A DNA stretch of 64,000 bases from contig NC_043000.1 of NCBI RefSeq assembly GCF_006345805.1, positions 79,794,001 through 79,858,000 on the forward strand. Direction: 5' to 3'. Within the stretch, counting starts at the first letter, position 1. Each line of letters opens with the position of its first letter. Made by a program: the position numbers and the translations under genes. The notes under the pieces were generated by a model that was not told where the DNA came from, searched no databases, and saw only the letters and a program-made list of their open reading frames with translations. This document shows positions 28,480-33,257 of the stretch, in pieces. This DNA is from Octopus sinensis (Eukaryota).

Positions 28480-30570
28480 AGCTTATTTGTCTTTCTAGCA
28501 CTGATATCAGAGCACTTAGCAAAAATATTCTAGATAAATATAATCCTACCTAAGTTAAAAAATTAAAGTTTAATTTATGGTCTAATTCCTTCCAAGTGGT
28601 CAACTGGTTTAATTCCATTAATAACAAGAAGTGCACTAAGTTTATCCAGTTCAACATTTCTAGTTACTATTCCTCTATTAACCCAATTGTACTTAACAAG
28701 GCGCTTTGGTTCGCACACAACAAAGCAAGTTTCACCAGGGATGAAATTAATGTCATGTTAGCTGCCAGAAAATCAATCATTAAATTTGAAAACAAGCTGT
28801 GGGTCTGTAAAAATATGCCTGATAGTTTTGATGTCATGATGGGAAGTTCTGATTCAGCAAAAATCCTTTACAAGATGGTTGACGAATTCCCAAACATCAA
28901 TGGAGGTCTATATCATGACGATTGTTTACTCTACCTTCAAAAGGTTTCTAACCAAAAATTACAAAGGGTTAAAAATAGGTCGGTTAAATTTTTCTGAAAC
29001 ATGGGCTTAAGCATTGTTTTTAAAGATGATATAACTAAAGCCAACTTTTTGGATATTACTTTTATATATATAATGATTCATATTTCCCATACTATAAACC
29101 CTCAACTAATTTAAAATATATTAGTTCTTTCAGTAATCATTCAAAGGCTATTACAAGGAATTTAGTTACAAATATTTTACTTAGACTTTCTAGATTATCT
29201 GCCAATGTTGATATCTTCAATGAAAAAGCCAAACTTTACAACTCTGCTTTACTTAAAGCAGGCTATAAAGAAAAAAATTATCTATATTAACCCTATTGAC
29301 ATTAATTCTACCTCTATTAATCAGGACAATCACAGCATAATGGTAATAAGAATATAAATTTTCATTCAAATAACAACACTACATTGAAAAATTTGATCTT
29401 GCAGCATAAGGGAGATAATTGTTATTTAAGACCCTTTTTCTGTTATAAAAATACATCTAGGACTTTTAAAGATAATTACCCAAATAACAAGGTATGTCCT
29501 AGTAAAACTATTTGGTTGATAATTCCATATGGTAAGCAGATGAAATCCAATCTCCCTAACCAGTTTCGTGAAACTATAGATAGGAATTTCCCTAGAAATT
29601 CAAGATAACATTCTATTATCAATTCACACTGAATTAGAATAGGGTTTTCAAACATCAAAAGCCTTTCACAAATCATACTTCGCATAACAATAAGTTGTTA
29701 AATACAAATCCACTTAATGAAAATAATAACATTGGCATTATTAACACCAACCATTCTTTGAACAATAATAACAACAATATTAGTATTTCTGATATAAATT
29801 TCAATCACTTTTGTTTCCTTAGCAGTAATTCTAAGACTAGAAACTCTGTTTATTAATGTAAAATTACTTGTGGTTCTGATGCCTTTGTTTACATAGGTAG
29901 TTCTTCATCTCAGTTGTCCAAAAGAATATCTAACCATTACTCTACATTTAGACATATCAATAAATGCAACAGCACTGGGTTTACTAAATTAATTTGGTCT
30001 CATAAGGAACATAATAAACAATTTGATTTGGAATGGAATATCCTATTTAGGTCCTTTCCATATGATACAGGTAAATCTTCTTGTCCGCGCTGTAATGAAG
30101 AACTCTGTCTAATCCTGTTCTCAGAGAATTCTCTTGTAAACACATTTAATGAATGCATTTATTGTTGCAAACATTGGCAAAAACATGCCTTTAGTTCCAA
30201 TAAGTAATTTCTACCAGCCTATAAAATTCAACCTTTAACTGTCTTCTTACATTTCATTTCCTCTAAATTTATCTATTTCCTTGCTTTTAAGCTTTATTCC
30301 CATTCATCTGTAGCACTACATTTCTCCACACTTGGTTTCCTGCTATTTTCTTTCTTTCTCTAAATTGCATTTGACATTAAATCTATTAATGTTTTTTTAA
30401 AAAATTAACTTGCCAGCATTCCCTTCATCATATATGCAGTCATCACATTCGGTTAAATGGCTTGTTGATGTTGTTTCTCTTTTTTCCCTGATGAGAAGAT
30501 TGCATTGTTTTACAATCATTTTATTCCCTCTGGAATAATACCAATGTTTTCTTCGAAACATATGTCAGAT
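28480..30570 (+). mobile_element. Penelope-like element (Naiad-type), second copy, ending in an HHR-bearing 3' region
   Basis: Near-identical to 15627-17290. VVNWFNSI..KFIQFNISSYYSSI, LYHDD and the GIY-YIG end at 29914-30207. The 3' UTR runs to about 30570, followed by (TA)n. Confidence 0.9.
30482..30570 (+). ncRNA. Hammerhead ribozyme motif in PLE 3' end (extended stem II)
   Basis: CUGAUGA 30488-94, stem II GAAGA/UCUUC around a 50-nt insert, GAAA 30555-58, C-AUAU-G, then UC. The 3' strand of stem I is disrupted. Confidence 0.65.
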
Positions 30571-30706
30571 ATATTATATGTGTGTGTAAATATATATATA
30601 TATATATATATATTATATATATATATATATATATATTATATATATATATATATATACATACATACATATATACACACATATATATATACATATATATATA
30701 CATATA

Positions 30707-30940
30707 TACTTTATTTTAAGCAGCAGAAAATTCAACAAAATCTGTTACTCTGAGTTTCTCGTTGCCGTTCATCAGACAGTTTTTGCTAGAATGGAACTGT
30801 CTGATGAACGGCAACGAGAAACTCAGAGTAACAGATTTTGTTGAATTTTCTGCTGCTTAAAATAAAGCATATTACTCTACCACTGGTATTTGAGTACTCT
30901 TTTTTTCCACCTTGTTTCACATTTATGTGTTTACTCCGGT
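30707..30940. mobile_element. TA-flanked palindromic insert with an HHR on each strand
   Basis: Near-perfect inverted repeat of about 75 bp (30707-30781 / 30795-30870), then a unique 3' tail to 30940. Confidence 0.85.
30797..30834 (+). ncRNA. Minimal type-I hammerhead ribozyme (mirror copy 30742-30779 on minus)
   Basis: CUGU-CUGAUGA-A-CG(GCAA)CG-A-GAAA-CUCAGAG-UA|ACAG. Stem I is CUGU/ACAG and the predicted cut is after 30830. Confidence 0.75.
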
Positions 30941-31222
30941 ATATACATATATATATATATATATATATATATATATATATATATATATATATATATATAT
31001 ATATGCATATATGTATATATATATATATATATATATATATATATAATAAATATTAGGGAATAAATCCAAATTTACAGGGAAAAAAAATCAGATTTAGGAT
31101 TAAATCCAATTTTATAGTAAAATATTATAAAATATTATTAGAGACAAAACCACTATTTTGCAAAACAAACAAGGAAAGACTTAATCAATACATAAAACTT
31201 TAATAAATAGTCAAAAAAACCG

Positions 31223-31265
31223 CCACTACAATCGTTTCTTGTCTTGATCGACAATCTTCAGGTGG
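31223..31265 (-). ncRNA. Type-I hammerhead ribozyme (mirror copy)
   Basis: Exact reverse complement of 31911-31953. Confidence 0.85.
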
Positions 31266-31910
31266 ACTTCAAATTTTTCTGGAGTCTGAGTCCATTTTTT
31301 ATACAAATTGTTCTCAAACATGCTGTTGTATTACATATGTGAGCCTTTTAATTCATAAGTGAAGGCAATGATTTTTTCGTTATTAGCTGATGATTCTCAT
31401 TTAATTAATTGAGAAAAAGACGTCTATCTCTGTATGAATTTTTTTTTTTTTTCTGACATGGAAGAACCTTTAGAAATTCATTTTTATCAGAAATCGTCAC
31501 AACTATAATGTATACATACGTGTGTGTGTATAAATAGCTGGTTAAGACGCCAAAGACATAAAGTTCAAACACAGGAAGTTAGAAAACGATTTTTCTAACT
31601 TCCTGTGTTTGAACTTTATGTCTTTGGCGTCTTAACCAGCTATTTATACACACACACGTATGTATACATTATAGTTGTGACGATTTCTGATAAAAATGAA
31701 TTTCTAAAGGTTCTTCCATGTCAGAAAAAAAAAAAAATTCATACAGAGATAGACGTCTTTTTCTCAATTAATTAAATGAGAATCATCAGCTAATAACGAA
31801 AAAATCATTGCCTTCACTTATGAATTAAAAGGCTCACATATGTAATACAACAGCATGTTTGAGAACAATTTGTATAAAAAATGGACTCAGACTCCAGAAA
31901 AATTGGAAGT

Positions 31911-31953
31911 CCACCTGAAGATTGTCGATCAAGACAAGAAACGATTGTAGTGG
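31911..31953 (+). ncRNA. Type-I hammerhead ribozyme
   Basis: CCAC-CUGAAGA-UUGUC(GAUCAA)GACAA-GAAA-C(GAUU)G-UA|GUGG. All core nucleotides are intact and the predicted cut is after 31949. Confidence 0.85.
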
Positions 31954-33257
31954 CGGTTTTTTTGACTATTTATTAAAGTTTTATGTATTGATTAAGTCTT
32001 TCCTTGTTTGTTTTGCAAAATAGTGGTTTTGTCTCTAATAATATTTTATATATATATATATATATATACATATATATATACATATATATATATACATATA
32101 TATACATATATATATACACACACACACATATATACACTAACACACACACATATATATATACACGTACATACACATATGTATGAGTAAGTGCATGTATATA
32201 TATATATTTGTGTGTATGTGTGTGTGTATGTGTGTGAGTGTGTGTATATATATATATATATATGTATATATATATATTTGCATGTCTATATCTGTTTATA
32301 TGTATATCCATAACTTTAGATTTGAGTGGATTTGGTAGATGGAAACTGAAAGAAGCTCCTCTCATATATATATATATCATGCATATATGTCTATATATGA
32401 TGCATATGTGTCTACATAACTACGTCTATTTTTCACTGCCATTTAAATTTCTATTTGTTTATATGTATATGATTATACTGCTGGGCACCTGTGAATCTTT
32501 TTACTTATGCATGCACTTATATACACTGATTATATAGACACATGCATAAGTCATTCGATATATTCTTTTCTATATGTTAGCATCTATAAGTGTGCATGCA
32601 TATATATATGTGTATGGATAAGTATGTATATATATATATGTGAGTATGTGTGTGTGCATATGTAAATATATGTGTGTATATATGGTTGTGTGTGTCTGCA
32701 TATGTATATGTATATATATATATATGTATGTGTCTTTATACAACTATGTATGCGAGTGTGTATGCATGTATGAATGTGTTCACTCCAGCATGACCACAGC
32801 CACATGGTTGAATGGATAAAAGAATATATGTATGTATGTGTGTGTGTGTGTGTGTGTGTGTGTGTGTGGGAAGGCTCAAGCTCAGTGGTTAGAACGTTGG
32901 GCTCACAATCATGAGGTAATGAGTTTCATTCCCAGACTGGGCTCTGTGTTGTGTTTTTGAGCAAGACATTTCATTTCACGTTGCTCCAGTTCACTCATCT
33001 GTAGAAATGTCACTGGTGCCAAGCTGTATTGGCCTTTGCCTTTCCCTTGGATAACATTGGTGTCATGAAGAGTGGAGACTGCCATGCAATGAGTAACTGC
33101 TGATCTTCTATAAACAACCTTGTCCAGACTTGTACATTGGAAGGAAACTTTCATGACTGAAAGAGTTTGATTTGGTTTCTGTGCTACTTTAAATATATAT
33201 TCTGTTGTGTCTGGGGAGAGTCATTTTCTTTTTGTGCCTTATAATTTAACACACTCA

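Follow-up and report, generated by a model that had tools for sequence, protein, structure and literature searches.

Background

What placed five hammerhead ribozyme motifs within 1.6 kb of octopus DNA? The question is raised by a 64,000-nt stretch of the Octopus sinensis genome (NCBI RefSeq assembly GCF_006345805.1, contig NC_043000.1; G000:C4:79794001-79858000 in our numbering), referred to here as the window and used for all positions given without a contig name; the genome measures 2.72 Gb and is rich in microsatellites. An original prediction, made from the letters alone, had seen in the motifs three unrelated families of elements that were serially inserted into one (TA)n target and built ribozyme arrays inside a putative intron. 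Following it up, we find that the cluster very probably arose when Hydra-like Penelope retrotransposons inserted three times in one (TA)n tract, together with spliceosomal capture of host exons, which the prediction had overlooked.

Penelope-like elements (PLEs) of the Hydra clade have been described, in a report that also lists Hydra-1_Obim for an octopus (PMC8557442), as having a single reverse transcriptase (RT) and C-terminal endonuclease frame with RWK, DKT, CxCX5C, CxxC and CxH motifs, a type I hammerhead near the 3' end, a (TA)n target, tandem or inverted copies, and a tail at one end. PLEs are known for genomic copies that keep their introns, and this retention, together with PLE-mediated gene mobilisation in Adineta vaga in which introns were likewise kept, had prompted the proposal of an antisense template (PMC3846280). 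In D. virilis Penelope, a short first exon is followed by an intron of the pseudo-long terminal repeat (pLTR) that ends next to hammerhead helix I (PMC2377424, PMC4209133). In vitro, the Poseidon element PAc had both target strands cut and extended, with uncleaved RNA as the template and two internal start sites that bound the tail (PMC11167929). Among other retroelements, SVA exon trapping splices upstream host exons to a retroelement acceptor and moves them along (PMC9148063), and for 5' chimeras of LINE-1 (L1) and mRNA, 15 of 17 source loci were without an intronic L1 and trans-splicing was proposed (PMC11838501).

Results and discussion

Five hammerhead motifs form three insertions

A type I hammerhead descriptor run over the whole window recovered exactly five motifs, all inside 30480-32050 and the same five that had been predicted. 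From core to cleavage site, they lie at 30488-30566 (hammerhead A), 30801-30830 (B) and 31915-31949 (C) on the plus strand, and at 31261-31227 (C) and 30775-30746 (B) on the minus strand. A comparison with shuffled sequence, named beforehand as a check, also bore the prediction out: 981 of 1000 dinucleotide shuffles of 30480-32050 had no match (maximum two), and 100 shuffles of the whole window gave a mean of 0.67 hammerheads against the five observed. Rfam at gathering thresholds returned no match anywhere in the window. The three different sets of stems, set apart by (TA)n at 30590-30708, 30940-31053, and from 32047, were recovered as well. Hammerheads B and C have the PLE minimal type I form (CUGANGA and GAAA cores, UH site, stems I and II, short stem III), B with an A-A mismatch at the base of stem II that is common to its family. 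Motif A lacks the 3' strand of stem I in the window, where it reads GTC followed by AGATAT; GTC followed by GGAAG stands in 11 of the 19 scorable relatives among 29 taken, and the window copy is likely inactive, having lost this strand.

Although five motifs are present, they do not represent five separate units, as the B pair and the C pair are each the mirror arms of a single palindrome. Motif 1 (30482-30569, plus strand, identified by the descriptor and by its relatives) closes the 3' end of element A, whose decayed RT and endonuclease frame occupies 28467-30207 on the plus strand and was recognised by tblastn with the family-B protein and by its YHDD and VYIG motifs. Relatives of element A are 81-92% identical (1788 candidates), so that A is evidently old. 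Beyond a first (TA)n tract (30570-30708) lies palindrome B (30709-30939), made of motifs 2 and 3: a tail-less minus-strand arm (30709-30797), a plus-strand right arm (30794-30867), and a 72-nt family-B tail on the right arm only (30868-30939, plus strand), with a predicted fold of one long hairpin at -127.9 kcal/mol. In tandem copies of family B, this tail sits before the open reading frame (ORF).

A second (TA)n tract (30940-31042) separates B from palindrome C (~31043-32050), made of motifs 4 and 5. Its minus-strand half comprises a family-C tail found on the left arm only (31043-31125), the element's exon 2 with its hammerhead (31126-31274), and a mirror copy of captured exons X and Y (31275-31590); the plus-strand half comprises host exon X (31591-31780), the 121-nt host exon Y (31781-31901), and exon 2 of family C from the acceptor junction through the hammerhead to a tail-less end (31902-32050), which meets a third (TA)n tract at 32047-32116. 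Between the arms, 460 bp long, the only differences are a single substitution and an indel in an A run. Each palindrome has an extra tail of 72-83 nt on a single arm. Genome-wide, the plus-strand hammerhead arm of B has 2755 exact matches and the family-C hammerhead 2932, and both insertions appear clearly young.

The insertions belong to coding Hydra-like Penelope families

At full length, family B forms tandem units of 3.3 kb that contain a frame of 727 aa. Though Pfam and PDB sequence searches with its protein gave nothing significant, the protein model (pLDDT, predicted local distance difference test, of 93) had TERT 3du5 as its best Foldseek match (E 4e-9). The catalytic motif is YRDD in B and C and YHDD in A, the motifs YTG and VYIG of a putative GIY-YIG endonuclease stand at the C-terminal position, and one homolog weakly matches PF01541. 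Among 110 aligned sequences, RW[K/R] and DK[T/S] were each present in 109, CxCx5-7CP in 108, and CxxC and CxH in all. Family B itself has RWK, DKT, CxxC and CxH, with the linker intact in copies of locus L094 (L numbers denote our loci), read as CxF in L092, and the CxCX5C form not found in L097 or L098; family C has KWK and DKT with CxCX5C, CxxC and CxH all present; and in the window's 5'-truncated element A, CxxC was seen and RWK/DKT was not. The Hydra-clade endonuclease has no CCHH motif, and by eye family B shows no Cys between its putative GIY-YIG half-motifs.

The predicted "three unrelated families" hold at the DNA level, where no relation was seen, and fail at the protein level, where B shares 33-44% identity with C and 29-40% with A (by tblastn, A containing stops; 29-44% overall). 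Placed by motifs, A, B and C evidently belong to Hydra-like PLE families: pLTRs from tandem copies, inverted 5'-truncated copies, and an optional tail, all seen here, are PLE traits, while a hammerhead near the 3' end and a (TA)n target, also seen, are Hydra traits, and the frame motifs, copy arrangement, and tail are likewise shared with the Hydra clade as described (PMC8557442). Their hammerheads have a different motif from that of Hydra-1_oBim, and they therefore look like other families. They also differ from that description in size (3.3 kb for B and ~5.7 kb for C, against "<3 kb" units) and in tails of ~72-83 nt as against 30-40 nt, and for Hydra the accessible parts of the report mention neither an intron in the pLTR, nor genomic copies that have been spliced, nor any capture of host exons (PMC8557442). 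The elements had been predicted to be "PLE-dependent", a description that gives way here: A is, on its sequence, a decayed coding PLE, and B and C in the window are truncated copies of coding families. Non-LTR (long terminal repeat) retrozymes, which are non-coding head-to-tail hammerhead units, were ruled out as all three families are coding and B and C stand head-to-head here. Separately, the minus strand of L182, a full-length copy of family C, holds a long Asn-rich stretch in the frame between RT and endonuclease, resembling the N-rich inserts of Adineta Penelope (PMC3846280).

Family C carries an intron that ends beside its hammerhead

In L182 (~5.7 kb), a 23-nt first exon is followed by a donor and a ~1.3-kb intron, whose acceptor precedes the hammerhead core by 13 nt. 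Splicing also makes use of another donor, 4 nt downstream of the first, and 1185 intact family-C acceptors were counted. Among 30 family-C ends taken in genome order (L146-L175), 17 were unspliced, nine self-spliced, and four otherwise arranged or truncated. The short 5' tag on family-C copies is the element's own exon 1, which ruled out a spliced-leader origin. None of 30 distinct self-spliced ends extends more than 23 nt upstream of the donor. That point likely marks the transcription start, and because spliced copies never pass it, the short family-C copies are likely cDNAs run off the 5' end of an mRNA.

Family C thus resembles D. virilis Penelope in its short first exon and in an intron ending beside the hammerhead, and differs from it in that the acceptor also takes host donors; unlike PLEs known for intron-keeping genomic copies, about 30% of its ends (9/30) are spliced. 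A further arrangement was seen at L207/L208 (G000:C2:66800352-66800781), a 408-bp tandem in which the ORF start of family C is joined back to the acceptor; it could reflect back-splicing into a circle or a template jump, and no GT stands at that point in the one full-length copy compared.

Host exons are joined to the family-C acceptor

Each arm of palindrome C contains two exons from contig C3, from between which a 15-kb GT-AG intron has been removed, and these join the element exactly at the acceptor 13 nt before the hammerhead, that is, at the end of family C's own intron. Exon X is 98% identical to G000:C3:122021357-122021545, where GT comes next, and exon Y is 100% identical to G000:C3:122036584-122036704, where the flanks are AG and GTAAGT; both of these source segments, 15 kb apart, therefore end at GT, and the second begins after AG.

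The window copy is one of a group. A scan for V-A-G directly before the family-C junction found 30 places (22 insertions), against five for the control pattern V-A-C, and most of the V-A-G places carry diverse foreign sequence. Sources were searched for eight of the 22 insertions, and the last segment was located for five, ending at GT in all five; with the window copy and two others, GT donors end the last exon in 8/8 located captures (one a base short), where GT at a segment end is expected by chance in ~6%. Three insertions trace to one C14 gene, in which mapped exons 2, 4, and 5 provided the donors, and source introns measure 15, 38, 94, and 105 kb. Captured exons are 96-100% identical to their sources, and the events appear very young indeed. 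At least ~1% of family-C ends carry foreign sequence at the acceptor, which bears on gene copying. Among the captures is a piece coding for a rhodanese-like sequence, for which no source was found. In L229 (G000:C18:47342189-47342507), another young multi-copy repeat supplies the first 106 nt of the capture, and a C5 exon follows.

These joins are akin to SVA and L1 chimeras, since upstream host exons ending at donors were joined to an element acceptor in all eight located cases and were mobilised. Unlike those chimeras, the acceptor is the end of the element's own intron and no cryptic site, the captures are very young (96-100%), and the insertions left in (TA)n are short palindromes. As in Adineta vaga (PMC3846280), PLE machinery moves host sequence together with pLTRs; in contrast to that case, introns are removed here, which points to a sense, spliced template. 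Taken with the spliced copies, the captures argue, contrary to the antisense idea, for a sense RNA template processed by the spliceosome and still uncleaved. In the literature searched, from which most subscription papers were outside the scope, no report was found of PLE exon trapping, spliced PLE copies, or PLE trans-splicing, and capture of host exons through a PLE's own splice acceptor has apparently not been described before. If transcribed, the captures, which stand in the genome as long inverted repeats, would give double-stranded RNA matching the source gene.

(TA)n targeting and the density of hammerheads

The prediction of serial insertion at a shared (TA)n target was borne out for PLE sequences: all 30 family-C ends of the genome-order sample run into (TA)n, as do 22 of 29 family-B ends, with another six of the 29 running into the next tandem unit. 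A special hotspot was not. Under independence, the genome-wide expectation is ~5.5 triplets within 1.6 kb and, for B-C neighbours at most 500 nt apart, ~1.7. With a handful of such triplets to be expected in each genome, the cluster is ordinary Hydra-PLE biology and calls for no special mechanism. Across the first 68 Mb of C1, which hold 74 C insertions, no B copy was found within 2 kb of any of them. With a stricter descriptor, 17 motifs (~12 insertions) were counted in 1.03 Mb of C3 and C14, and foreign hammerheads were about fourfold denser near A, B, and C copies, in samples that are small and partly overlapping.

Other hammerhead families were met in the course of this work. One of them, a young repeat of 403-404 bp arranged head-to-tail (L357-L367; for example G000:C25:1271765 and C9:70303697-70307758), carries a type I hammerhead, adjoins (TA)n in the copy viewed, and is likely a non-LTR retrozyme. 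Further families occur at G000:C3 (~122.082 Mb) and L157, among them a tandem unit of 353 bp whose stem is short and GC-rich.

A possible route to one-tailed palindromes

From 42 rows, hand removal of duplicates and inner pairs left 36 distinct inverted family-C insertions, and all 36 have the tail on exactly one outer arm. The same capture is present on both arms in 9 of 11 capture palindromes, the two donors are mixed in none of 12 self-spliced palindromes with both junctions readable, and the centres show short microhomology. Two palindromes with different breakpoints, L230 (C22:28.40 Mb) and L234 (C10642), each pair an unspliced arm with an arm that has captured the same Gypsy-like RT fragment.

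We propose that a host transcript would likely read into an intronic family-C copy absent from the assembly, with host exons spliced to the element's acceptor. The template would be sense-strand, spliced RNA still uncut by the ribozyme, a likely state given that the position of the captured exons is 5' to the site of cleavage. In this scheme, the element protein nicks a (TA)n tract on both of its strands, reverse transcription would begin at two sites just downstream of the hammerhead, namely the pLTR end and the tail end, and both cDNAs would reach the RNA 5' end and be joined there, yielding a head-to-head palindrome with the tail on one arm. Such a pattern fits the two start sites and uncleaved template of PAc (PMC11167929), an element of a different clade, whose report draws no link, in its accessible parts, to tail-asymmetric palindromes or exon capture. 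The one-arm tail in 36/36 palindromes would thereby tie start sites seen in vitro to a long-unexplained inverted PLE structure, a prediction that is testable.

Weighing the alternatives

We consider it hardly credible that the cluster is a selected, functional ribozyme array cutting a host pre-mRNA. Three motifs do share the plus strand, and the roughly fourfold enrichment of foreign hammerheads near such insertions would suit an array; on the other side stand a hammerhead A without stem I, the hairpin of B and the near-perfect 460-bp arms of C, the chance expectation of such triplets, and the weak in vitro cleavage of PLE hammerheads (PMC4209133). The predicted "ribozyme arrays" are also difficult to maintain given motifs on opposite strands and a B hairpin predicted to bury both of its hammerheads. 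It is very improbable, too, that host sequence was added by RT template jumping or DNA repair without splicing, since the junctions fall at the exact acceptor base with GT donors in every located case and internal introns are gone from the captured sequence, even though template jumps are plausible in PLEs (L207/L208 join the ORF start to the acceptor at short microhomology) and five control junctions exist. Palindromes might instead arise by fold-back, in which one cDNA self-primes and copies itself, as proposed in PMC3846280. The identical rare captures on both arms, the unmixed donors, and the microhomology at the centres all suit this possibility, to which we give real though lesser weight: alone, it offers no reason for a stop at the pLTR end on one arm and at the tail end on the other (36/36), and the arms of L230 and L234 require two templates, namely differently processed RNAs.

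For the account of three insertions with capture and two cDNAs, several points count against us. Most copy samples were best hits or picked by pattern, with only L146-L175 in genome order; in 3 of the 11 captures pursued, no position was found for the last exon (sources of L209 and L228 were not found or only partly, and in L214 only the last exon is missing from the match); and the two-start-site step rests on the Poseidon-clade experiment (PMC11167929), a clade other than that of A, B, and C. A sense acceptor copy downstream was seen in none of the four source loci tested (C3 at 122.04-122.4 Mb, C14 at 59.6-60.23 Mb, C4 at 43.5 Mb, and C5 at 14.7 Mb, leaving out genes at C5:44.2 Mb, C10, and C26) in this one-haplotype assembly: none in 365 kb below the C3 exon, none in 600 gap-free kb at the C14 gene, and, by exact-match haplotype lists, none closer than 44 Mb on C4 and none closer than 4.3 Mb on C5. 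The C14 gene, moreover, is joined to two different element subfamilies. These last points would favour a trans-splicing origin, in which acceptor-bearing element RNA is joined to donors of separate long-intron host pre-mRNAs and the chimera is then retrotransposed, insertion proceeding otherwise as above. Within the capture reading, we put this just short of an even chance, and cis capture from an intronic copy missing in the assembly at about even. Trans-splicing would also suit the three different donors used in the C14 gene, the long source introns (15 to 105 kb), the same idea proposed for L1-mRNA chimeras (PMC11838501), and L214, a three-part chimera of a tandem hammerhead repeat, C4 exons, and the family-C acceptor. 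In L214, a donor-like site of the 403-404-bp repeat type is joined to a host exon, the repeat haplotype occurs at 25 places with none upstream on C4, and neither mobile part lies near the C4 gene on the exact-match lists.

Tempering this, the assembly represents one haplotype, in which sense intronic copies would be rare and purged; two of the three C14 captures share one element haplotype, found at 193 places and seen at ~7% of ends; at an identity to C4 of only 96-98%, the L214 exons may derive from another allele; and exact-match lists overlook copies with sequencing errors. The window's own family-C haplotype occurs at nine places, none on C3, and its master copy was not found among them, an indication that the assembly can lack source copies. 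A C6 copy considered as that master was unsupported, its hammerhead arm keeping only ~45 nt of intron, and the sole family-C copy near the C3 gene was set aside as a source, being antisense, 306 kb away, and of other variants. It is thus with some reserve that we suggest that a Hydra-clade PLE may use its own pLTR-intron acceptor as a hook for trans-splicing onto donors of unrelated long-intron pre-mRNAs, wherever in the genome these are encoded, and write their 5' exons back as palindromes in (TA)n tracts via two cDNAs begun at its two internal start sites on a single RNA, a proposal we hold at somewhat below even. Were the join made in trans, dozens of young events, each exactly mappable, would stand in the genome as a record of trans-splicing kept in DNA.

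Other features of the window

Further Hydra-like remnants lie at 15625-17291 and 24559-25219, the first 93% identical to element A over 1.7 kb. By eye, from translations, a Tc1/mariner-like transposase remnant was recognised at 33450-34421 (minus strand), and, also by eye, endonuclease and RT remnants resembling long interspersed nuclear elements at 54279-56644 (minus strand). As to the putative intron predicted around the motifs, one AG/GT-flanked open segment at ~26651-26810 (plus strand) is a candidate host exon; it resembles a coiled-coil coding exon of a host gene and matched no clear family. An interstitial (TAACCC)n array of telomere type occupies 10545-10758, and ~660 bp of (CCG)n stands within AT-rich surroundings at 61177-61835.

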